NCBI GenBank assembly: GCA_022574315.1
Contig: JACZSH010000001.1
Location: 1 to 37,621 of the forward strand
Reading direction: 5' to 3'
DNA: 37,621 bases
Source: Chloroflexota bacterium
GTDB taxonomy: Bacteria > Chloroflexota > Dehalococcoidia > Dehalococcoidales > RBG-16-60-22
This document shows, one piece after another, positions 26,026 through 37,621 of this stretch. The position numbers were made by a program, and so were the translations under genes. Each line of letters opens with the position of its first letter. Position 1 is the stretch's first letter. The notes under the pieces are model-generated. The model made no database searches, was not told the origin of the DNA, and saw only the letters and a program-made list of their open reading frames with translations.

Positions 26026-27285
26026 TTATGCCCACGCCTCAGGAAAATACTGGATAGTCGCGTCTGGAATTACGGCCACCTTTGCCTTCTCTCCGTATTC
26101 GCTCCGGAGTTTATGAATCACCTCCGGCCACGCCTTTGCCCAGTTAATCATGTCGGGCGGCGCCAGCCAGTCGGCGCCCACCCGGTCGGCGTACTGGGCA
26201 AGCACCGTCAGACGCTTTGTGCCGGCGGGTAGTCCGGTAGGCACCCCCTCCGGACCTTTCGTTTTCCAGCCCCGGCCGCCAAACTTCTTACCGAAACTCC
26301 GCAGCAGGTAGTGGTGTATCTGGCCTTCCGGGGTAATGGCGATAACCACCATATCGCCGCCCGTCTTGGGCAGCATCGGCGAGGCTACCATCGGCGCCAG
26401 CAACATCTCGTTTGCCTTGGAGAAGCAGTTAGCGATGACGATGTCCGCATCACGCACCATGGCTGTCTCGTAATGCTTTCTGGCCAGTTTTACCCCCTCC
26501 GTGAATTCGGCCAGCGGGTCACCCACGAACAGGGCGGTTACTTGTCTCTTTAAGTTAAGGATGGCGTCCACCTTAATATCCAATCCGGCCAATTGGGCGG
26601 TCTCGATGATATCCTGCATCAGGTCGTTTTTGGCCAGTTCTCCGGCGTGTACATCGGGAGAGCGCCCCAGCCGGCCATGGTTAGCGTCTATCGTATCCAT
26701 GGCAGCGACCCCGGGCATGATTATCTTGCACCCGCCGCCAAAACCGAATGGGTGCGGGACGATGGCGCCGATGCCGATGGTAAGGTCGCAGGCCATGAAC
26801 TCGCTGTTAATGGCGACTGGTGTCCCGTAACTGGTCTTACCGATTGGTGTGCAGTTCTCGTACGGGTTGTGGTTGTAGACCATGAACCGGTCCATAACGT
26901 CCTCCCCCAGCTTCTTCCTGAAGTCAATACCGTTCATCGTCCCGTGCGCCCCGATGGCGGCAATGAAGCGTATGTTATCATCCGGAATGCCCGCCGACGC
27001 CAGTTCCTCCAGGATAAAGGGTATCAGGTCGGCGCTCGGTGTTGGTCGAGACATGTCATCAAAAAGTATGGCCACTTCTTGCTTCCCCTCGGCCATTTCC
27101 CTTATCGTCCGGGTGCCGATAGGGTTGGCGAAGGCTTGCCTGATACCAGCCTCGTTCAGTGGCGGCGCATCCTGTCCTTTCATCTTGCAGACGGTTACGT
27201 CCCACGATTCGGGAAAGTCCAGTTCAAGTTCTTCATCACCGTACCAGGCCAGTATTGGTATGGTTACCTTTTTCGTATGGCTCAC
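26026..27285 (-). CDS. LarA-family (DUF2088) nickel-pincer-nucleotide-dependent 2-hydroxyacid racemase/epimerase homologue
   Basis: GTG start with AGAGG RBS. AAIGAHG and VPHPFGFGGGCKIIMPGVAAMDTIDANHG reproduce the LarA catalytic His / GGxK tether / Ni-His arrangement as I recall it. Confidence 0.8.
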   Translation of the reverse strand: MSHTKKVTIPILAWYGDEELELDFPESWDVTVCKMKGQDAPPLNEAGIRQAFANPIGTRTIREMAEGKQEVAILFDDMSRPTPSADLIPFILEELASAGIPDDNIRFIAAIGAHGTMNGIDFRKKLGEDVMDRFMVYNHNPYENCTPIGKTSYGTPVAINSEFMACDLTIGIGAIVPHPFGFGGGCKIIMPGVAAMDTIDANHGRLGRSPDVHAGELAKNDLMQDIIETAQLAGLDIKVDAILNLKRQVTALFVGDPLAEFTEGVKLARKHYETAMVRDADIVIANCFSKANEMLLAPMVASPMLPKTGGDMVVIAITPEGQIHHYLLRSFGKKFGGRGWKTKGPEGVPTGLPAGTKRLTVLAQYADRVGADWLAPPDMINWAKAWPEVIHKLRSEYGEKAKVAVIPDATIQYFPEAWA

Positions 27286-27375: not shown

Positions 27376-28743
27376 CTATAAAAATTCTTTTTCAAAATCG
27401 CCCAGCGCGTCATCCAGCATATCGAAGGCGGCGTCAATCTCGCCTTCGGTGATGATAAAAGGCGGCGAGACCAGGAAAGTGTCTCCTCTCACCCCATTAT
27501 CCACCCCGGTGGTCGGGTAACCCATGCACCCCTTGTCCATCGCTATCCGCTGGAAGCGGTTGGCCGCTCTTAGTGTCGGGTCGAAAGGCTCCTTCGTCGC
27601 CTTATCCTTCACCAGTTCGATGCCCATGAGCAGTCCCTTGCCCCGGATATCTCCTACCACCGGGTGTCCGGACAGCTTCTCTCTGCCTTTTTTAAAGAAG
27701 TATTCTCCCAGCCGGGCGCTGCGTTCCACCAGCCCTTCCTTTTCGATGATGTCGATTACGGTCAGGCAGGCTGTCGCCGATACCGGGTTGCCCTCCATGG
27801 TGAAACCGTGGATAAAGCTGGCCCCTTTCTCGGTGAACACTTCCCCTATTTTCCGGTCGATAATCGCCACCGCCATCGGCGTGTAGCCGCCGGTCATTCC
27901 CTTGGCTGAGGTGATGATGTCCGGTTGTACTCCCCAGTGCTCGATGCCGAACCACTTGCCGGTACGGCCGAAACCGCAGATAATCTCGTCGTCGATGAAA
28001 AGGACGTCGTGTTTATCGCAGATTTCTCTTATCATCGGATAGTACTCCGGCACCGGGACCATGCAGGCGGTGCCCGCACCGCCGATAGATTCGGCGATAA
28101 AGGCGGAAACGTACTGGGCGCCGACCTGGTTGATAATCTCGTCCAGGGCGCGGGCGCAGCGGATTTCACAACCGGGATAGGTCGTATCGTAAGGGCAGCG
28201 GTAGCAAAGCGGCGAGCCTATCTTCGGCCACTGGTGCAGCAGAGGGTTGAACTTGAGGCGGCGTCCGGTGTGCCCGGACGCGGATAGCGCCCCCAGCGTC
28301 ATACCGTGGTAACTTTGCCATCGTGATATCACCATGTGTTTCTCCGGGTTCCCGTTCTCCACGTGGTACTGGCGGGCAACTTTTATGGCGGTCTCGTTGG
28401 CCTCTGAGCCGCTGTTACAAAACTGGCACATGGTCAGGTTGGATGGGGAAACCTCGATGATTCGCTCGGCCAGAGCCAGCAAAGGCTCATTCAGCCAGAA
28501 ACCGCGAAAGAAAAAAGAGACCTTCTTCATCTGTTCCATCATGGCGTCTCTTACTCTCGGGTCGCCGTGTCCGATGGAGACCACGTGCGGGCCGCCGCTG
28601 AAATCAAGATATCTTTTACCTTCCTGGTCGAAAAGATAGACTCCTTCGCCGTGGTCGCAAATCACCTGCGGCAGCAGCGGACCGTGCACCGTGCCGAAAA
28701 CGTTGCCGGCTTTCTGCTGGGCGGCTTCTAACCGGTCTGGCAT
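27376..28743 (-). CDS. Class-III (omega-) aminotransferase, paralogue A
   Basis: 455 aa. [37 protein letters not shown] (PLP Lys). Roughly 70% identical by eye to the 31175-32542 product. Confidence 0.9.
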
Positions 28744-28890: not shown

Positions 28891-28948
28891 TATTAAGATA
28901 ATGGCCGTAAGTTGTCAACTATTAAGATAATGGCCGTAAGTTGTCAAC
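28891..28948. repeat. Perfect 29-bp tandem direct repeat (TATTAAGATAATGGCCGTAAGTTGTCAAC x2) that carries minus-strand promoter elements
   Basis: Units at 28891-28919 and 28920-28948 are identical. On the minus strand each unit gives TTGACA, a 17-nt spacer, then TAATAG or TAATAT. Confidence 0.9.
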
Positions 28949-29043: not shown

Positions 29044-29700
29044 ATGGCAGCAGAGAGTAAATATGAGCGATTAAGTGAAGCGATAATAGAGGGGGACGGC
29101 GGCAAGACGTTAGCTGCCATTGAGGAAGCGTTACAGGGAGGCATGGCGCCGGGGGAGGTTATCGAAAAAGGGCTGACCCCGGGGATGAAAGAAGTCGGGG
29201 AACGGTTTGCCCGCTATGAGATATACCTGCCGGAGATGATGATGGCCGGGGAGGCCTGGGAGCAGGCGATGAAGGTACTGGAGCCGAAGCTGCTGGCCGC
29301 CGGCGGGGAGAAAAAGAAAGCCGGCCGGGTGGTCATCGGCACGGTCAGTGGTGACGTGCACTCGATAGGCAAAAACATCGTGGCGGCGATGTTAAAGATG
29401 AACGGGTTTGAGGTATTTGACATTGGCATCGACGTGGCGTCGTCGGTATTTGTCACCCGGGCTGAGGAGGTAGGGGCGGACATTATTGCCGCCTCGGCGC
29501 TGATGAGCACCACCATGCCGCAGCAGCGAGACATTATCGAGCACCTGGAAGCCCGTGGAGTGCGTGACAAGTACACATTTCTGGTGGGCGGTGGTTCCAC
29601 CAGTCAGGAGTGGGCGGACAGCATCGGCGCTGATGGCTACGGGCGGACGGCGGGAGACGCGGCGGCATTGGCCTTGAAAGTGATGGCGGGTAAGAGTTAA
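29044..29700 (+). CDS. Cobalamin-binding corrinoid protein (MtmC/MtbC/MttC-like: B12-binding_2 cap plus Rossmann B12 domain)
   Basis: DxHxxG motif GDVHSIGKN (29353-29370) followed by FEVFDIGIDV ... SALMSTTM ... LVGGG. Size (218 aa) and helical N-terminal cap fit methyltransferase-cognate corrinoid proteins. Confidence 0.85.
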   Translation: MAAESKYERLSEAIIEGDGGKTLAAIEEALQGGMAPGEVIEKGLTPGMKEVGERFARYEIYLPEMMMAGEAWEQAMKVLEPKLLAAGGEKKKAGRVVIGTVSGDVHSIGKNIVAAMLKMNGFEVFDIGIDVASSVFVTRAEEVGADIIAASALMSTTMPQQRDIIEHLEARGVRDKYTFLVGGGSTSQEWADSIGADGYGRTAGDAAALALKVMAGKS

Positions 29701-29745
29701 AGGAGAGACTTAAAAGTGGTGGCGGGTACAAAGTTAAAGGAGAGA
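29680..29745 (+). repeat. Imperfect tandem duplication of the corrinoid-gene 3' end plus RBS (GTGRTGGCGGGTA..AGTTAAAGGAGAGA x2)
   Basis: 29680-29708 (GTGATGGCGGGTAAGAGTTAAAGGAGAGA) and 29716-29745 (GTGGTGGCGGGTACAAAGTTAAAGGAGAGA). The second copy supplies the RBS of the MtmB-like gene. Confidence 0.8.
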
Positions 29746-29752
29746 TATATAG

Positions 29753-31141
29753 ATGCTTAGTTTTGCGGCGGTAGTTGACCGCGCTTTAAGCGGGCCGATA
29801 TGCACGGAGCGGGATTTTGAGTTGGGGATTTTTGTGCCCAACCTGCGCCGGGTAGTTGAGAAATATGATATTAAGTATGACCCGCAGAATCCGGTACCGG
29901 CGGACGATGATTTAGCCGACCGGGTATGGGAGGCAGGGCTGGAGTTCCTCACCGAGACGGGTGTTTACTGCACGGATACGGAGCGGCGGATACTGTTCAC
30001 GAGGGAAGAGATAGAGGGGGCGTTAGCCTTCGGGCCCCGTGGCAACACCTTTGGTGAAGGTAAAGACGCCAAAGTAATGCCCCGTCGTCGTCCTGAAGAC
30101 GAGACTCCGCCCTGGTGCTCGGTGGGCCCCACTTCCTCCCCCCTCTCCAGCGAACAGATTTACCTCAGCATCGTCAAGGCTCACGCCGAGAACCCGCTGG
30201 GAAACTCCATTACCATTCCCTGCCTGACCATGGTGGACGGCCGGCAGATAGTGGCCGGCAGCCCCTTGGGCATAGAAGGCGCCATCCGGGCGGTGCTGCT
30301 GACTCGCGAGGCAATGCGCCGGGCCGGTCGACCCGGCATGCCCATCGTCAACGGCGTCACTACCGCCGCCAGGTCTCAGGAGCATATCGCCGCCCATCGC
30401 TTTGGCCTTCGCCAGTCTGATGCCATGGAGATAGGCACCACTCACGAGATGAAGATTGATTTCGATTCTTTGAACAAGATTGCCTTTTCGCTGGCCGCCG
30501 GCAGTCTCGTTTTTGCCGAGAACGGCGTTATCCTGGGTGGTCTCGCCGGCGGGCCGGCCGGTGTCGCCGTGGTCACCGCCGCTTACAATCCGGTGGATAT
30601 ATTAGTCCTGCGCGGCGCCGTCCAGCACCCCTTCCCCACCCACTTTGACCTTGGGGTAACTTCCACCCGGGACACCATCTGGCCGCGCAGCCTGGCCAAC
30701 CAGGCAATCACCCGTAACAGCTCCCTGCCGGTGGTCAACGTTGGCTACTCCGGGGCCGGCCCGATGACCAAGATGCTCTATTACGAGCACTCGGCATGGG
30801 TCATTGCCTCCGTCGTCTCCGGTGGCTCCATCGAGGTCGGCGCGTCGGCACGCGGCACGACCCTTGACTACACCAGTCCCATCGAACCACTCCTCGCTTC
30901 TGAGGTCGCCCATGCCGTGGCCGGGATGAGCCGTCCGGAAGCCAACAAGATAATCAATGTCCTCCTGGCTAAGTACGAGGACAACCTGCGCAACCCGCCT
31001 GCCGGCCAGCGTTACCAGGAATGCTTTGACGTGGCCAGCGGAACCCCCACCGCGGAATGCGCTGCGCTTTACCGCGAGGTCAAGCAGGAAATGGCGGATG
31101 AGTTCGGCCTGAAATTTAATCCTGTCTCGCCCTATGCGTAG
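29753..31141 (+). CDS. Monomethylamine methyltransferase MtmB-family homologue, pyrrolysine-free (copy 1)
   Basis: The 462-aa uninterrupted ORF is collinear with Methanosarcina MtmB as I recall it: GVYCTDTERRILFTREEI vs GIYCTDTHRIVKYTEDEI; AGRPGMPIVNG vs AGRPGMGV(Pyl)G; PAGQRYQECFDV vs PAGKTFQECYDV. No in-frame TAG. Confidence 0.8.
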   Translation: MLSFAAVVDRALSGPICTERDFELGIFVPNLRRVVEKYDIKYDPQNPVPADDDLADRVWEAGLEFLTETGVYCTDTERRILFTREEIEGALAFGPRGNTFGEGKDAKVMPRRRPEDETPPWCSVGPTSSPLSSEQIYLSIVKAHAENPLGNSITIPCLTMVDGRQIVAGSPLGIEGAIRAVLLTREAMRRAGRPGMPIVNGVTTAARSQEHIAAHRFGLRQSDAMEIGTTHEMKIDFDSLNKIAFSLAAGSLVFAENGVILGGLAGGPAGVAVVTAAYNPVDILVLRGAVQHPFPTHFDLGVTSTRDTIWPRSLANQAITRNSSLPVVNVGYSGAGPMTKMLYYEHSAWVIASVVSGGSIEVGASARGTTLDYTSPIEPLLASEVAHAVAGMSRPEANKIINVLLAKYEDNLRNPPAGQRYQECFDVASGTPTAECAALYREVKQEMADEFGLKFNPVSPYA

Positions 31142-31174
31142 TCAATAACTTATGCTGAAGGGATAATTTGAGCC

Positions 31175-32542
31175 ATGTCTGAGCGATTGGATGCCGCTAA
31201 AAAAGCGCGTACCAAAGTATTTGGTGTTTTATCCTCCCTGCCCGCCGAACGTATCTGCGACCACGGTGAAGGGGTTTACCTCTTTGACCAGGACGGCCGG
31301 CAGTACATTGATTTTTCCGGCAGTCCCATGGCCTGTTGTCTCGGGCATGGCGACCAGCGGATAACCCGCGCCGTCACCGAACAGATGCAGAAGGTAAGTC
31401 TCTGCTTCAACACCTACTGGATTAATGAACGTGAGGGAGAACTGGCCGAAAGAGTCCTCCGCCGTGCCCCGCGGAACATGGCGCGCTGCCAGTTTCTCAA
31501 CAGCGGCTCGGAAGCCACCGAATCGGCCATCAAGCTCGCCCGCCAGTACCACCTGGAAAACGGGCAGCCGGGAAAATACATGGTTATCTCCCGCTGGCAG
31601 AGTTATCACGGCATGACCCTGGGCGCGCTTTCCGTAACCGGATTTTCCAGCCGCCGGGATAAGTTTACTCCCCTCCTCCAATCCTGGCCCAAGATAGATG
31701 CGCCGCTTTGCTACCGCTGCCCCTACGATATGACCTATCCGGGCTGCGAAGTCCGCTGCGCCCGCGCCCTGGACGATATTATCAACCAGGTCGGCGCCCA
31801 GTACGTCTCCGCCTTTATCGCCGAACCAATCGGCGGCGCCGCCAGCGCCGCAATGGTGCCCGTGCCGGAGTATTATCCCCTGATAAGAGAAATCTGCGAT
31901 AAACACGACGTCCTGTTCATCGACGATGAGGTTATCTGCGGTTTCGGCCGCACCGGTAAATGGTTCGGCATCGACCACTGGGGGGTACAACCGGACATCA
32001 TCACCATGGCCAAAGGAATGACCGGCGCCTATACCCCCCTGGCTGCCATACTGGTTTCCGACCGTATCGTCGGCGTTTTTGAGCAGACCGGGGGCAAGTT
32101 CATCAATGCCTTTACCACCGCCGGAAATCCGGTTTCCTGCGCCGCCGGCATCGCCGTGGTCGATATTATAGAGAATGAAGGACTGGTCGAACGCAGTGCC
32201 CGGTTAGGTGAGTACCTGCACCGGCGTGCCCGGGAGAAGCTCTCTCATCACCCCGTGGTCGGTGATATTCGCGGCCGGGGTATGCTTATGGGAGTAGAGC
32301 TGGTCAGGGATAAGGCCACTAAGGAACCTTTTGACTCTTCCCTGCTGGCCGGTTCCCGCGTGCATCGTCTGGCTATGGAAAAAGGGTGTATGGTCTTCCC
32401 CACTTCCGGCTTTGTCCATGGCGTCCGGGGAGATGCCATCATGATGGCGCCGCCTTATATTATCACCGAGGCGCAGATTGACGCCGCTCTTGATATGGTA
32501 GACGAATCGCTGGCTGACTTCGCCCAAGAAATTGCCGGGTAA
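31175..32542 (+). CDS. Class-III (omega-) aminotransferase, paralogue B
   Basis: 455 aa. [37 protein letters not shown]. Starts 33 nt after the MtmB-like gene. Confidence 0.9.
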   Translation: MSERLDAAKKARTKVFGVLSSLPAERICDHGEGVYLFDQDGRQYIDFSGSPMACCLGHGDQRITRAVTEQMQKVSLCFNTYWINEREGELAERVLRRAPRNMARCQFLNSGSEATESAIKLARQYHLENGQPGKYMVISRWQSYHGMTLGALSVTGFSSRRDKFTPLLQSWPKIDAPLCYRCPYDMTYPGCEVRCARALDDIINQVGAQYVSAFIAEPIGGAASAAMVPVPEYYPLIREICDKHDVLFIDDEVICGFGRTGKWFGIDHWGVQPDIITMAKGMTGAYTPLAAILVSDRIVGVFEQTGGKFINAFTTAGNPVSCAAGIAVVDIIENEGLVERSARLGEYLHRRAREKLSHHPVVGDIRGRGMLMGVELVRDKATKEPFDSSLLAGSRVHRLAMEKGCMVFPTSGFVHGVRGDAIMMAPPYIITEAQIDAALDMVDESLADFAQEIAG

Positions 32543-32591
32543 GTCTGGTTTCCAAAAGGGGGTTATCTCCCCGGTTTTATCGCCGCTTCCG

Positions 32592-33071
32592 TTACGGAGT
32601 GGCTCCCATGTGATGGATTAATTCGATGGTATCCATCAGGCCGTCCCCTCCCTTGATGGTGTCCAGATTGACGAAGGTTTCCGTCCTCAGGATGCTGGGA
32701 ATAGCCGATATTTCCCGCTCGATAAACTGGGCCAGTTCCTCGGGCGATTTGGTAACCACGATAGCCATCAGGTCGTATCGGCCGGTGACAAAAGCCAGGT
32801 AGCAGATATGCTTATTCTTGGCCAGCTTTTCGGCAACTTGTCTCAGGTCCTCCATCTTGACCTGGATTCCCGCGATGCCGATAAAGCCATAACCCAGCTT
32901 TCGCATGTTTGGTACCGCCACTATCTTGATGAGGTTCTTACCCAGCAGGTTCTTTATCCTTTTCCGTATCGTGCCCTCAACGACTCCCATTTTCTTTGCC
33001 AGTTTAACGTAGCCCTCCCGGCCATTTTCCTGCAATTCAATAATTAATTTTCTGTCTAGGTCATCAATCAT
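32592..33071 (-). CDS. Lrp/AsnC-family transcriptional regulator
   Basis: DDLDRKLIIELQENGREGYVKLAKKMGVVEGTIRKRIKNL (HTH), then an RAM/ACT-like domain (VTGRYDLMAIV). Confidence 0.9.
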   Translation of the reverse strand: MIDDLDRKLIIELQENGREGYVKLAKKMGVVEGTIRKRIKNLLGKNLIKIVAVPNMRKLGYGFIGIAGIQVKMEDLRQVAEKLAKNKHICYLAFVTGRYDLMAIVVTKSPEELAQFIEREISAIPSILRTETFVNLDTIKGGDGLMDTIELIHHMGATP

Positions 33072-33357
33072 TATCTTCTCCCTGGTTCTTTCGAGTTTGG
33101 ATTATAGCAGGCACTCCCTTATAAGTCAAGAAAATATTACGCATAACGTAAAAATATTAGCTGGATTGTTAGGGAAACCGCTTTTTCGCCTGGCGATAAT
33201 TGTGCGGTATCTTGATTTGACAAAAATCCCCGTTTAATGTTAAGAAGTGGCATATACCAATTGCCTTATTTTCACGTTCAACCTGCCTGTGAACATTTAA
33301 AGCAAGGCCCTTACCGTGTAGAATATTCAGCATTGTGGTATGTATCGTATATAATAC

Positions 33358-33386
33358 TTGACAATAACCGATAAACGTAATACTAA
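33358..33386 (+). promoter_or_regulatory. Candidate promoter for the aminotransferase C / MtmB-like-2 unit (TTGACA-17-TACTAA)
   Basis: TTGACA at 33358-33363, 17-nt spacer, TACTAA at 33381-33386, in an AT-rich 480-bp divergent intergenic region. Confidence 0.35.
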
Positions 33387-33565
33387 TGCCAATATATGAC
33401 TTGATAAATGTAGGAAAACGTGATGAATAATATGGCGTGAAAATGTCATGGCCTGGCCGCGCTGCGGGCTGAGAAGGGCTGAACTCGCCTGTCGGCGAGT
33501 TCGGAAAAATGTAGCTCTGTTTTTGAATCCCGGCAGGCAGTAAATAAATACGGATGGAGAATCAA

Positions 33566-34936
33566 ATGAAATCTGACGATGTGGAAAAATTGGTCGCTAC
33601 GGCAAAAAAGTATTTGTGGCCGGCATTTGCCCGGGACGCCTCCTTCTTCGGCCGTCCGGTATCTATCATTAAGTCCGCTGAGGGACGTTATTTTCTGGAC
33701 AGCTTTGGCAACCGGTTGCTTGAACCTAACTCGTCCGGTGGCGCGGCTCCCCTCGGCTATAACCTCCCCGAGCTTATGCAGGCCGTCTCCGAGCAAATGA
33801 GCCTGATTATCAACACCACCCCCAGCCTCTTTGCCCCCACCGAGCCCATCGTCTGGCTCGCCGAGAAGATTGCCCATATTTCGCCGGGTAATCTGACATA
33901 CACCATCTTTGGCAGCAATGGCACGGACGCTAACGAGGCGGCGGTGAAAATAGCCCGCCATTACTGGAAAATAATGGGCAAAGCTACCAAGTACAAGGTG
34001 CTTCACCGCTACCCGGGAGACTATCACGGCTTCAGTCTCGGCATGTCCAGTGCCAGCGGTCATTCTTTCCGGCGGACGGCCTTTGAACCGCTCATGGCCG
34101 GTTTTGTCGCTTTTCACGCCCCTAACTGTTATCGCTGTCCGTATAACCTGACCCATCCGGAGTGTGACCTGCTCTGTGCGGAAGAGTTCCGCAAAGTGGT
34201 TGAGTTTGAAGACCCGTCCACCATTGCCGCCCTCATCAGTGAAAACACCAATACCGGTCTGGGGATGGTGCTGCCGCCCCCCGGCTACATGCAGAGAATG
34301 CGCGAGATTTGTGACCGGTATGAAATCCTCATGATTCTGGATGAGATAATTACCGGTTTTGGCAAGACCGGCGTCTGGTTTGAATGTGAAAAGTATGATA
34401 TCGTCCCGGACATGATTGCCATGGGAAAAGGCATCGTCTGGGGCTGCGGCCCTCTGGCGGGGACGCTGGTCAGGGGTGACATTACCGAGGTATTTACCGG
34501 CGCCAATGCCTTGCAGCACGGTTTTACTTTTGGCGGCCTGGGTTACCTGGCCGCCGCCGGTCTCGCCGGTATCAAATACGTCGAAGAACATAATCTGCTG
34601 GCCCGGGCGTCTCAGATAGGTGACATAATGTCACGGGAGCTCGGTGCCATTAAGGACCGCTCAAAGATTATCGGTGACGTCCGTGTCAACGGCGTCCTCG
34701 CTGGCGTCGAGTTTGTCCGCGACAAGAGCACTAAAGAGCTTTTCGTCGACCGTGCCGCCGTGTCCAACCTCATCGTCAAGGTGGGCATGGAAAACGGTGT
34801 CCTGCTGCCCTGTTCCACCTGGTATGGAGATATCCTGATGTTGATGGTGCCGATGACCATGACCGATGACGAGTTGGGTATGCTCTTTAACGCCATCGAA
34901 AAGGCGACTGCCGAAGTAGAACGTCAGTTCCTTTAG
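33566..34936 (+). CDS. Class-III (omega-) aminotransferase, divergent paralogue C
   Basis: GSNGTDANE, ILDEIITGFGKTGVWFE, IAMGKGI (PLP Lys). ATG at 33566 has GGAG 6 nt upstream; ATG at 33554 is the alternative start. Confidence 0.85.
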   Translation: MKSDDVEKLVATAKKYLWPAFARDASFFGRPVSIIKSAEGRYFLDSFGNRLLEPNSSGGAAPLGYNLPELMQAVSEQMSLIINTTPSLFAPTEPIVWLAEKIAHISPGNLTYTIFGSNGTDANEAAVKIARHYWKIMGKATKYKVLHRYPGDYHGFSLGMSSASGHSFRRTAFEPLMAGFVAFHAPNCYRCPYNLTHPECDLLCAEEFRKVVEFEDPSTIAALISENTNTGLGMVLPPPGYMQRMREICDRYEILMILDEIITGFGKTGVWFECEKYDIVPDMIAMGKGIVWGCGPLAGTLVRGDITEVFTGANALQHGFTFGGLGYLAAAGLAGIKYVEEHNLLARASQIGDIMSRELGAIKDRSKIIGDVRVNGVLAGVEFVRDKSTKELFVDRAAVSNLIVKVGMENGVLLPCSTWYGDILMLMVPMTMTDDELGMLFNAIEKATAEVERQFL

Positions 34937-34946
34937 GCAGCACTGT

Positions 34947-34978
34947 CCTTGAAAGTGATGGCGGGTAAAAGTTAAAGG
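34947..34978 (+). repeat. Orphan remnant of the corrinoid-protein gene 3' end (CCTTGAAAGTGATGGCGGGTAAAAGTTAAAGG)
   Basis: Matches 29672-29703 (the last codons ...LKVMAGKS-stop of the corrinoid gene plus RBS start) with a single mismatch, but here it follows an aminotransferase gene. Confidence 0.8.
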
Positions 34979-34998
34979 GTTCGAGGAGAGATATAAAA

Positions 34999-36384
34999 AT
35001 GCTTAGTTTTGCGGCGGTAGTTGACCGCGCCTTAAGCGGGCCGATATGCACCGAGCGCGATTTTGAGTTGGGGATTTTTGTGCCCAACCTGCGCCGGGTA
35101 GTTGAGAAATACGGGATAAAGTATGACCCCCAGAATCCGGTCTCCGCTGATGATGACCTGGCCGACCGGGTATGGGAGGCAGGACTGGAGTTCCTCGCCG
35201 AGACGGGTGTTTACTGCACGGATACCGAGCGGCGGATTACGTTTACCCGGGAAGAAATCGACGGCGCCCTGGCGACGGCGCCTCGCCCGGTTCTTTTCGG
35301 CGATGGGAAAGATGTTAGAGCCGTACCCATCCGCCGCCCTGAAGACAAGACCCCGCCTTGGTGTTCTGGTTCCGGTGCCGGCCCGGTATCCACGGAACAG
35401 ATTCTTTTCAACGTGGTAAAACTGTATGCCCAGGACCCCCTCAGCGATGGTATTACCGCCCCCGCCATGTCCTACGTCGGTGGACGGGACATTATTGCCG
35501 GTAGCCCCCGCGGCCTGGAAGGCGCCATCCGCACCATTCTTTTAACCCGTGAGGCGCTGCGCCGTGCCGGACGTCCCGGCATGCCCGTCGTCAACGAGGT
35601 CGCCACTGCGGTGCGGGCGCAGGAGCATATCGCCGGACACCGCTTCGGCAGCGTGAAGACCGATTACCTGGAAATAGGCACCACCCACGAGTTGAAAGTT
35701 GATTTTGACGCGCTGAACCGGGTGGCCTACTGGCTGGCCGCCGGGAGCTACGGCTTTGCCGAAAACGGCGTTATCCTGGGTGGTCTTTCCGGTGGGCCCG
35801 CCGGTGTGGCGGTGGTTATCGCCGCCTATAATCCGTTGGACATGCTCGTCCTGCGCGGTGCGGTGCAGCACCCCTTTGCCGTTCCTTTTGAGGGAGGCAC
35901 CACCTCCAACCGTGGTTGCATGTGGGCACGGAATTTGGCCACGCAGGCAATAACCCGCCACAGTCCTATGCCGCTGGTTAACTCCGGTTATTCTGCTGCC
36001 GGGGCAATGACCCGGATGGCCTATTATGAATTTGCCGCCTGGGTTATCGGCTGCGTCGTCTCCGGGGCTTCCGTTGAGCTGGGCCCGCCGTTACGGGGCA
36101 CCGCCCTCGACCACAGTGCCCCCCTGGAGGATATTTTCGGAAACGCGGTCGCCCACGCCGCGGTGGGCCTGAGCCGCCGGGAAGCCAACAAGATACTCCA
36201 GGCGCTCCTGGAAGAATATGAAGCCAAGCTGGCTGACCCTCCGCTGGGCAAGAGATATCAGGAATGCTACGACCTGGCTACCGGTGAGCCGACTAAAGAA
36301 GCCGTTGACCTCTGCCGGGATGTCAGGCGGGAGATGTCTGACCGGTTCGGTCTGAAGTTCCCCCGTGTCTCGCCGTACCTGTAG
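34999..36384 (+). CDS. Monomethylamine methyltransferase MtmB-family homologue, pyrrolysine-free (copy 2)
   Basis: 461-aa uninterrupted ORF with the same family landmarks (GVYCTDTERRITFTREEI, AGRPGMPVVNE, PLGKRYQECYDL). About two thirds identical to copy 1 by eye. Confidence 0.8.
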   Translation: MLSFAAVVDRALSGPICTERDFELGIFVPNLRRVVEKYGIKYDPQNPVSADDDLADRVWEAGLEFLAETGVYCTDTERRITFTREEIDGALATAPRPVLFGDGKDVRAVPIRRPEDKTPPWCSGSGAGPVSTEQILFNVVKLYAQDPLSDGITAPAMSYVGGRDIIAGSPRGLEGAIRTILLTREALRRAGRPGMPVVNEVATAVRAQEHIAGHRFGSVKTDYLEIGTTHELKVDFDALNRVAYWLAAGSYGFAENGVILGGLSGGPAGVAVVIAAYNPLDMLVLRGAVQHPFAVPFEGGTTSNRGCMWARNLATQAITRHSPMPLVNSGYSAAGAMTRMAYYEFAAWVIGCVVSGASVELGPPLRGTALDHSAPLEDIFGNAVAHAAVGLSRREANKILQALLEEYEAKLADPPLGKRYQECYDLATGEPTKEAVDLCRDVRREMSDRFGLKFPRVSPYL

Positions 36385-36564
36385 GCTTGGTAACAGGGCG
36401 CTTACCGTTGTAATTCTCGCGCCCCGGTCCCATCCGCGGATTTACCGGCCAGGTCTGAACATCTAACTGGCAATGAGGTCTGCCCTGCCTTTTGTGATAG
36501 AATATCTTCATCATCAGGGAAAATCAGCAATCCATGGCTGTTCAACAGGGAGAATAAAACATCA

Positions 36565-37621
36565 ATGCACCCCTCGGATAAAAACAGACTGTTTTACGGT
36601 TGGGTGATTGTTATCGCCTTTTTCGTAATATGTTTTGTTCTCTACGGCGTCCAGTTTTCCTTCGGGGTCTTCTTCAAGTCAATCGAAAGCGAGTTCCAGC
36701 TCTCCCGGGCGGCTACCTCGTCAATTGTGTCTGTTAATATGGTATTGGTCGGCATCAGCGCTTTTATTGCCGGTTGGGCACTGGACAGGTTCGGGCCCCG
36801 CATCGTCCTCTTTATAATGGGCCTCTTCACCGGCCTCAGCCTTATCCTTACCGGCCAGACCGGTTCCCTGTGGCAGCTTTATTTCACCTATAGCCTCTTG
36901 CTGGCCATGGGTACCGGGGCTGTCTTCGTCGTCTCGGTGTCGACGGTCGCCCGCTGGTTTGACCGCCGGCGCGGCCTGGCGATGGGTATTACCGGTTCTG
37001 GCATTGGCTTTGGCCCTTTGATTATCGCCCCACTGGCTACCTACCTCGTGGCCGCCCTCGATTGGCGGCTGGCTTATGTCATTCTCGGCATCGGTGCCTG
37101 GGTGCTTGTCCTTCCTTTCTCCTTTTTCCTGAAAGGCGACCCGTCTCAGGTTGGCGCTTTGCCTGATGGCGCCCGGGAGCCGGCATTGGATACCGGACAA
37201 AATCACGCCCGGGCGGGCTATCTCTCTTTGCTGCAGGCCGTCCGGGTGCGTAGTTTCTGGCTTTGTCAGGGTATCTGGGTGTTTCATGCCGCTAACATCT
37301 TTCTCATCATGACCCACCTGGTGCCCCATGTTACCGATATCGGCTTCTCGGCGATGGAGGCCGCCATCGTGCTCAGCGTGATTGGGGTTGCCTCAACCTT
37401 CGGCCGGGTAATCATGGGCGTTGTTAGTGACCGGGTGGGCGGAAAATTGACCATTATCCTTTGCGGTCTTTTTCAGAGCAGTGCCACCATCTCGCTCATC
37501 TGGGTGCAGGACCTGCCGGCGTTTTATCTTTTTGCCGTCGCCTGGGGAATTGCTTTCGGCGGTATGGCTCCCGCCATGGGGACTCTCGCCAGTAGCACCT
37601 TTGTCCTGGGGCGTATCGGCT
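36565..37621 (+). CDS. MFS transporter (oxalate/formate-antiporter-like subfamily), 3' end beyond the window
   Basis: My own translation from the ATG at 36565 stays open to the window end. It shows repeated TM segments and MFS motifs (GWALDRFGPRIV; ARWFDRRRGLAMGI; VVSDRVGGK). It is not in the ORF track because no stop is reached. Confidence 0.8.
   Translation, partial: MHPSDKNRLFYGWVIVIAFFVICFVLYGVQFSFGVFFKSIESEFQLSRAATSSIVSVNMVLVGISAFIAGWALDRFGPRIVLFIMGLFTGLSLILTGQTGSLWQLYFTYSLLLAMGTGAVFVVSVSTVARWFDRRRGLAMGITGSGIGFGPLIIAPLATYLVAALDWRLAYVILGIGAWVLVLPFSFFLKGDPSQVGALPDGAREPALDTGQNHARAGYLSLLQAVRVRSFWLCQGIWVFHAANIFLIMTHLVPHVTDIGFSAMEAAIVLSVIGVASTFGRVIMGVVSDRVGGKLTIILCGLFQSSATISLIWVQDLPAFYLFAVAWGIAFGGMAPAMGTLASSTFVLGRIG

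Follow-up and report, generated by a model that had tools for sequence, protein, structure and literature searches.

Mosaic ancestry of an MtmB-like gene next to the stump of a corrinoid gene in a Dehalococcoidia contig, and its probable origin by ectopic recombination between paralogous junctions

The 37,621-nt stretch analyzed here, called the window throughout (contig JACZSH010000001.1 of assembly GCA_022574315.1, from a Chloroflexota bacterium), encodes one corrinoid protein and two MtmB-like methyltransferases. The second MtmB-like gene, B2, is of chimeric ancestry: it is a mosaic in which a corrinoid-linked junction and the first ~120 nt of coding sequence (CDS) are joined to the body of an old paralogue. 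Its likely origin is ectopic recombination between two paralogous corrinoid/methyltransferase junctions, followed by loss of the redundant corrinoid gene. The window is contig C121 of a metagenome-assembled genome (1.39 Mb, 155 contigs, 82.7% complete) whose relatives are uncultured Dehalococcoidia/Dehalococcoidales. Its corrinoid gene is named corr1, the two MtmB-like genes B1 and B2, and the three class-III aminotransferase genes AT_a, AT_b and AT_c. Locus 1 consists of AT_a (minus strand), corr1, B1 and AT_b; locus 2 runs from AT_c to the side of the MFS transporter gene. The genes at the center of the analysis are the following.

29044-29700, plus strand: corrinoid protein gene corr1 (Pfam B12-binding and B12-binding_2; NCBIfam TIGR02370, 222.7 bits, cutoff 215.3)
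29753-31141, plus strand: MtmB-like gene B1, 462 aa, pyrrolysine-free (PF05369, E = 4.3e-92)
33554-34936, plus strand: class-III aminotransferase gene AT_c (Pfam PF00202)
34999-36384, plus strand: MtmB-like gene B2, 461 aa, mosaic, intact (PF05369, E = 6.9e-79)

B1 and B2 are most alike at their 5' ends. Their first 113 nt differ at three positions (CDS nt 33, 54 and 60), all of them synonymous, and 289 nt around the gene starts (29733-30021 against 34979-35267) are 89% identical. Identity in sliding 60-nt windows is 0.92-0.97 at the 5' end and 0.57-0.83 afterwards, and the longest exact run shared by both copies is ~53 nt. An earlier note on this DNA, made from the sequence alone, had counted three differences in the first ~113 nt and described the first ~250 nt as clearly more similar than the rest; both statements hold, and the sliding-window alignment that it proposed as a check returned the 5' excess. 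Its estimate that the central parts are about three-quarters identical was too high, as the rest of the genes is ~67% identical in nucleotides and 62% in amino acids.

The excess is also seen at silent sites. Among codons for identical residues, synonymous changes are found in 4 of 38 in codons 1-38, 11 of 40 in codons 39-82 and 112 of 236 in the rest of the genes, and the Nei-Gojobori synonymous divergence (dS) of the B1/B2 pair rises from 0.22 in codons 1-40 through 0.61 in codons 41-83 to 1.28 in the body. The low synonymous divergence at the 5' end means that the similarity exists at the DNA level and not at the protein level alone. Across codons 1-38 the B1/B2 pair is 0.96 identical, compared with 0.727 ± 0.046 in 262 between-genome paralogue pairs of similar body divergence. 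The recombination-type test suggested in the earlier note, carried out here as a maximum chi-square test, gave a value of 113 on 413 informative sites (permutation p ≤ 1e-4), indicating that informative sites cluster.

Homologs of these genes were sought in 60 relatives and found in 15 genomes, often as tandem arrays. The key relatives are G002 (a sister species in the same genus), G001 (same genus) and G013 (another genus). The gene order in G002 is LarA(-) AT_a(-) corr1 B1 AT_b AsnC(-) AT_c corr2 Bx B2o By MFS, where Bx, B2o and By are the members of a methyltransferase gene array. In each of G002, G001 and G013 the AT_c orthologue is immediately followed by an intact corrinoid gene; more distant AT_c orthologues are unlinked to these genes. 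Because this corrinoid gene is syntenic in all three relatives, the comparison indicates that the window has lost corr2 and that positions 34936-34978 are what remains of it.

The end of corr1 at 29672-29703 recurs at 34947-34978, behind AT_c (32 nt with one mismatch; 0 chance matches expected from 100 shuffles). Ungapped extension lengthens the match to 43 nt at 91% identity (29661-29703 against 34936-34978). Its left edge is the last base of the AT_c stop codon, and the extended match therefore places the beginning of the stump there. The local alignment score of the remnant is 30, against 5.5-8 upstream of other corrinoid-less paralogues, and no comparable remnant was found before the other corrinoid-less array members. 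These data, with the comparison of junctions in related genomes that the earlier note had recommended, bear out its claims that the corrinoid tail recurs behind the aminotransferase gene and that B2 once had a corrinoid gene in front of it that was later lost. The features of the two junctions are as follows.

29661-29703, plus strand: 3' end of corr1 and first spacer bases, the intact counterpart of the remnant (43 nt, 91% identical to 34936-34978)
29673-29745, plus strand: 36-nt tandem duplication of the corr1 tail and Shine-Dalgarno region, second copy non-coding and decaying (Tandem Repeats Finder, TRF)
34936-34978, plus strand: remnant of the deleted corr2 3' end, with the former stop codon at 34973-34975 (43 nt, 91%)
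34979-34998, plus strand: B2 spacer with Shine-Dalgarno sequence (GAGGAGAG) (junction alignment)

The tandem duplication of the tail at locus 1, also reported in the earlier note, was recovered by TRF at 29673-29745 with a period of 36, 2.0 copies and 89% matches. Both G002 junctions and metagenome contig L066 show the same 36-nt offset; G001 and G013 do not have it. The duplication is thus shared by locus 1 of the window, G002 and L066, and the B2 junction has a single copy of the tail. The B2 spacer also keeps an 8-nt element (GGTTCGAG) that is common to the G002 junctions and missing in locus 1 of the window and in L066. Within 29716-29760 of the window, a 1-nt insertion in the second tail copy removes the former stop, and the resulting 14-codon, GTG-initiated frame overlaps the start of B1; this frame is not conserved in G002 or L066. 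Two ideas about the stump were considered and set aside. The first, that the corrinoid tail is retained as a conserved cis-element, was rejected: the stumps of the window and G001 differ, and each matches only the tail of its own genome. For the second, a microhomology-mediated deletion of corr2, the G002 proxy offered no more than a weak and unconvincing GGCCT match.

Phylogenetic reconstructions place the two parts of B2 with different relatives. B2 shares 62-77% identity with G002_B2o over the first ~120 nt, compared with 90-95% further on. In the tree of codons 1-40, B2 is sister to B1 within the B1-type clade of the genus (split support 100). In the tree of codons 41-83 it groups with G002_B2o (support 93), and in that of codons 84 to the end it again groups with G002_B2o (support 100), inside a clade that contains members from other genera. 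In approximately unbiased (AU) tests, the grouping of B2 with G002_B2o was rejected for codons 1-40 (p = 0.011), as was that of B2 with B1 for the body (p = 2e-70). The 5' end of G002_B2o is very different from that of B2, with a proportion of synonymous differences (pS) of 0.83 in codons 1-40.

Diagnostic sites, with three B1 orthologues and G002_B2o as references, show the same pattern. B2 is of B1 type at nt 4-120 except at nt 54, mosaic at nt 132-252 and of B2o type beyond. B1 has the B2o state at nt 116 and 120, where B2 has B1-type states, so the exchange of states is reciprocal at the edge of the tract. Segment incongruence, synonymous homogenization and clustering of sites, which are the marks of ectopic gene conversion and concerted evolution, are all observed. 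The incongruent trees, the AU tests and the synonymous sites agree with the earlier note's suggestion that the 5' ends were homogenized by recombination. The B2 body has a dN/dS of 0.125 against G002_B2o, which points to purifying selection and to a gene that is probably functional. The tract and its surroundings have these positions.

29866-29872, plus strand: short patch in B1 with B2o-type states, CDS nt 114-120 (diagnostic-site table)
34999-35118, plus strand: recombinant tract of B1 (corrinoid-linked) type, CDS nt 1-120 (20 of 21 diagnostic sites B1-type)
35119-35250, plus strand: mosaic zone, CDS nt 121-252, in which B1-type and B2o-type patches alternate (strings of informative and diagnostic sites)
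36385-36564, plus strand: spacer between B2 and the MFS gene, 180 nt, homologous to the spacer behind By in G002 and not to that behind B2o

The exchange between the two loci is recent. The tract differs from B1 of the window at 3 of 113 nt; window B1 and L066_B1 have 8 differences, and window B1 and G002_B1 about 12. The tract itself is also further from L066_B1 (8 differences) and G002_B1 (12 or more) than from B1 of the window. The species-level dS of ~0.35 is above the B1/B2 dS of 0.22 in codons 1-40. The GGTTCGAG element was lost from locus 1 before the split of the window and L066 lineages, yet is kept in the B2 spacer; this retention and the single tail copy indicate that the stump and spacer are the old, vertically inherited junction of locus 2. 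The coding tract, from about -20 to +120, points to a recent exchange with B1 as a short conversion tract. Whether the tract came by fusion, by conversion or by both, locus 1 and locus 2 must have exchanged sequence at least once in the lineage of the window.

The 3' side of B2 also differs from a simple orthologue of B2o. Local alignment of window positions 36340-36600 with G002 contig L030 (16121-16381) relates the downstream spacer to that behind By. The last 35 nt of B2 are a mosaic of B2o and By; a clean 3' crossover between these two was sought, and this segment is too short to decide the matter. A parental tandem array is present at the syntenic position in G002 (corr2-Bx-B2o-By-MFS), and the stump, the corrinoid-linked 5' end and the By-type downstream spacer fit a contraction of Bx-B2o-By to one gene, with recombination at the conserved ends of the genes. 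The single clean breakpoint expected of an unequal crossover was not found, as the transitions at nt 120-252 and in the last 35 nt are both mosaic.

Comparable events have left traces elsewhere in the genus. In G002, the corr1+B1 and corr2+Bx units are 100% identical over ~1,020 nt, from ~16 nt before the corrinoid gene start to ~nt 290 of the methyltransferase gene, and ~73% identical thereafter. The two copies form a direct repeat on one contig (L030, G002:C3, CBDUSH010000003.1; 5290-6310 and 11130-12150), and this perfect repeat reflects either a very recent conversion or the assembler's handling of repeats. The sister species also has a third corrinoid/mtmB unit (L029, G002:C240; 106-1760), found by genome search, with a corrinoid gene 74% identical to that of the window that contains one in-frame TAA and an mtmB gene 82% identical to B1 that is ended by the contig edge. 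In G001, ~1.1 kb of other DNA stands in place of corr1 and most of AT_a. A perfect 24-nt stump of the corrinoid tail remains in front of B1, with the same spacer that follows the genome's own corr2. Corrinoid-gene loss is thus reciprocal, with corr2 missing in the window and corr1 in G001. The replacement (L032, G001:C27; 5704-6843) takes the place of corr1 and the first 391 codons of AT_a, and contains a ~75-nt element, present twice and bounded by terminal inverted repeats (AAATACTTC...GAAGTATTT), that resembles a miniature inverted-repeat transposable element or a structured repeat. Within-genome paralogue pairs with a weaker 5' excess occur in other genera (L046, L031, L037), and some of them group in the 5' tree. 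Among B1 orthologues dS is 0.71-0.76 in codons 1-83 and 0.36 in the body; repeated import of sequence from diverged paralogues into the 5' end would be expected to produce such a doubling.

We propose that the ancestor of the genus had two junction loci, AT_a(-)/corr1-B1-AT_b and AT_c-corr2-(array of old mtmB paralogues)-MFS, and that ectopic homologous recombination between the two paralogous corrinoid/mtmB junctions was followed by loss of the redundant corrinoid gene. The deletion of corr2 would have begun immediately downstream of the AT_c stop codon and ended 40 nt short of the corr2 stop, leaving the 43-nt stump and the ribosome-binding spacer. The array, which is Bx-B2o-By in the sister species, would now be a single gene with the body of B2o and the downstream flank of By. 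The first ~120 nt of B2 are of the corrinoid-linked (B1/Bx) type and would have been exchanged with B1 recently, and the mosaic zone to ~nt 250 together with the reciprocal patch in B1 at nt 114-120 suggests a heteroduplex that was repaired in patches. The tract ends at the drop in paralogue identity, and the conserved N-terminal coding region may have been enough for RecA-type pairing. The process as a whole would be short-tract gene conversion, probably with contraction of a three-gene array. We infer this order of events; the tract may derive from unequal crossing-over of Bx with B2o, from a conversion donated by B1, or from a combination of the two. The proposal of the earlier note, that the second unit arose by copying a corrinoid-mtmB junction, is refuted for the gene body, which is an old paralogue (dS 1.28 to B1, 100% support as sister of G002_B2o); the part of corrinoid-linked type is limited to the junction and ~120 nt.

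Several observations weigh against this reconstruction. Nucleotides 54 and 60, two sites within the tract, carry the B2o state. The AU p value for the 120-nt segment is modest (0.011), and the clade tested was picked after the tree had been seen. The genus provides a single B2o-type reference, and some of the B1-type calls past nt 130 may reflect changes that arose in G002_B2o alone. The N-terminal ~90 residues are the best-conserved part in all paralogues of the family (protein alignment), and part of the raised identity up to ~nt 250 therefore reflects selection at the protein level. The 1-kb perfect repeat of G002 may be inflated by repeat handling in the assembler. All of the evidence comes from metagenome-assembled genomes, and no independent assembly of the B2 junction was found: no contig encodes exactly B2, and the junction-specific 28-mer is absent from the metagenome contigs. 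A degenerate 5'-end pattern had one match in these contigs, in L066, which is the locus-1 orthologue.

An explanation close to the one proposed is contraction of the array alone. The tract and stump would then be what is left of a lost Bx, its 5' end and corr2 junction, after one unequal crossover had joined them in register to B2o, and no direct conversion from B1 to B2 would have occurred in the lineage of the window. The likeness to B1 would then date from an earlier homogenization of corr1/B1 with corr2/Bx, as in G002. The sister species has the required arrangement (AT_c-corr2-Bx-B2o-By-MFS, with Bx equal to B1 over the first ~300 nt), the stump and tract are contiguous, and the By-type flank downstream of B2 suggests a second contraction at the 3' end. 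We nevertheless consider contraction alone unlikely. The transition is mosaic without a single breakpoint, B1 carries the reciprocal B2o-type patch at nt 114-120, and the coding tract (3 of 113 nt) is younger than the 8-nt spacer indel shared by locus 1 of the window and L066, so that at least one later exchange between the loci is needed. That the G002 array represents the ancestral state is, moreover, an assumption. An assembly artefact, in which the contig joins different loci or strains through shared k-mers, would have to be suspected in a fragmented genome in which repeats are known trouble spots, and a contig of G001 does end within such a repeat. It is nonetheless highly improbable, as the copies are not identical (3 mismatches, spacer indels), no repeat bridges the point at which the remnant meets the AT_c stop codon on its left, and the B2o-type 5' end in G002 has no long k-mer in common with the tract.

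The earlier note had also raised functional constraint, in which a shared element acting in translation or regulation, or a shared docking surface for the single corrinoid protein, keeps the 5' ends alike. The family-wide conservation of the N-terminal ~90 residues, the modest 5' excess in within-genome paralogue pairs of several genera, and the proposal that MtmB and MtmC are co-adapted in archaea (PMC6053082) could be read in this way. Against constraint stand the homogenized synonymous sites, with 3 silent differences in 113 nt. None of four folds of the junction and 5' coding region exceeded its shuffles (z -0.05 to +1.48), and an Rfam search of the window (E ≤ 1) gave no match here, only a sub-threshold caiA match elsewhere. 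G002_B2o and G002_By, in a genome with the same corrinoid type, keep 5' ends that were not homogenized (~70% identity, pS 0.9), and the remnants differ between species and match only the corrinoid tail of their own genome. We therefore regard constraint as very unlikely to explain the shared 5' end. A more speculative extension of the recombination reading, to which we give little credence at present, is that in Dehalococcoidia MtmB arrays the corrinoid gene and the first 40-100 codons of the adjoining methyltransferase gene form a co-converted module that is kept matched by selection, the N-terminal segment contacting the corrinoid protein. If so, the stumps, the 1-kb block of G002 and the 5' excess in other genera would be products of selected concerted evolution, and a fixed docking part could accept new substrate-specific bodies.

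Both MtmB-like proteins match PF05369 over its full length (309.7 bits for B1 and 266.2 bits for B2, cutoff 25; profile positions 6-447 of 450), and both match the solved MtmB of M. barkeri (PDB 1tv2/1l2q; E = 3e-63, residues 8-453). Neither B1 nor B2 contains an in-frame stop, UAG included, and the pyrrolysine position is a sense codon (AGRPGMPIVNG aligned to AGRPGMGV-KG of MtmB). From their sequences they are assigned to the pyrrolysine-free branch of the MtmB superfamily (PF05369). An MtmB homologue from the same order (L015, G038:C14), 35% identical to B1, has one TAG at the pyrrolysine position (AGRPGMGF-TAG-GPET), which suggests a pyrrolysine-type enzyme in an order-level relative. For B1, the link to the corrinoid protein is one of gene adjacency, with corr1 directly in front of it. 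A search of the genome's own assembly, which is 82.7% complete, found no second corrinoid gene of the corr1 type above 45% identity. B2 is an intact orphan methyltransferase gene, and the two methyltransferases very probably share the one remaining corrinoid protein. The neighboring genes are listed below.

26026-27285, minus strand: LarA-like gene
27376-28743, minus strand: class-III aminotransferase gene AT_a
31175-32542, plus strand: aminotransferase gene AT_b
32592-33071, minus strand: AsnC-type regulator gene
36565 onward, plus strand: MFS transporter gene

AT_a and AT_b flank the corr1-B1 cassette in inverted orientation and are ~67% identical in protein sequence, a divergence that marks them as an old pair outside the recent exchange. 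The divergent control region between AT_a and corr1 contains a perfect 29-nt tandem repeat in two copies (28891-28948).

For annotation, the 5' end of B2 is unsuitable for orthology calls. The pyrrolysine-free MtmB arrays of these streamlined Dehalococcoidia appear to keep old gene bodies, presumably with different substrates, and the corrinoid gene and the gene starts are shuffled, homogenized and lost around them.

Chimeras produced by unequal crossover in tandem arrays are well known from haemoglobin Lepore and the red/green opsin hybrids, and ectopic conversion in bacteria from tufA/tufB. B2 resembles the array-crossover chimeras in its in-register fusion of a 5' part and a body from different paralogues, in the loss of array members and in having the flanks of the outer members. 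It differs from them in that the junction is mosaic and the 5' part was exchanged with a non-adjacent paralogue 5.2 kb away. In gene identity, the nearest characterized system is MtqB/MtqC of Methanococcoides methylutens Q3c (PMC13044021). MtqB, which acts on tetramethylammonium/choline, was the first MtmB homologue lacking pyrrolysine to have its function demonstrated, and it is the only one so far. Both are pyrrolysine-free members of the MtmB superfamily with an adjacent corrinoid gene, a likeness that bears on gene identity only, and the context here is different, with three class-III aminotransferases and LarA-like, AsnC and MFS genes. The closest parallel in process is found in Methanosarcinales, where recurrent and long-lasting concerted evolution of mtmB/mtmC and mtbB/mtbC paralogues has been read as co-evolution of complex partners (PMC6053082, Commun Biol 2018). 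The same protein families are involved in both, MtmB-type methyltransferases with their cognate corrinoid proteins, and units of the same genome are homogenized together, as in G002, where the corrinoid gene and the methyltransferase gene start are identical over ~1 kb. The present case differs in that it is bacterial (Dehalococcoidia) and pyrrolysine-free, and in that conversion is limited to the corrinoid gene and the first 113-300 nt, whereas the bodies stay old and divergent; in the window, one corrinoid gene was later deleted, and a stump and a 120-nt tract are left. As a bacterial case confined to part of a gene, it adds a new example to a known process without revealing a new mechanism, and it extends to bacteria the concerted evolution of MtmB and MtmC known in methanogens.

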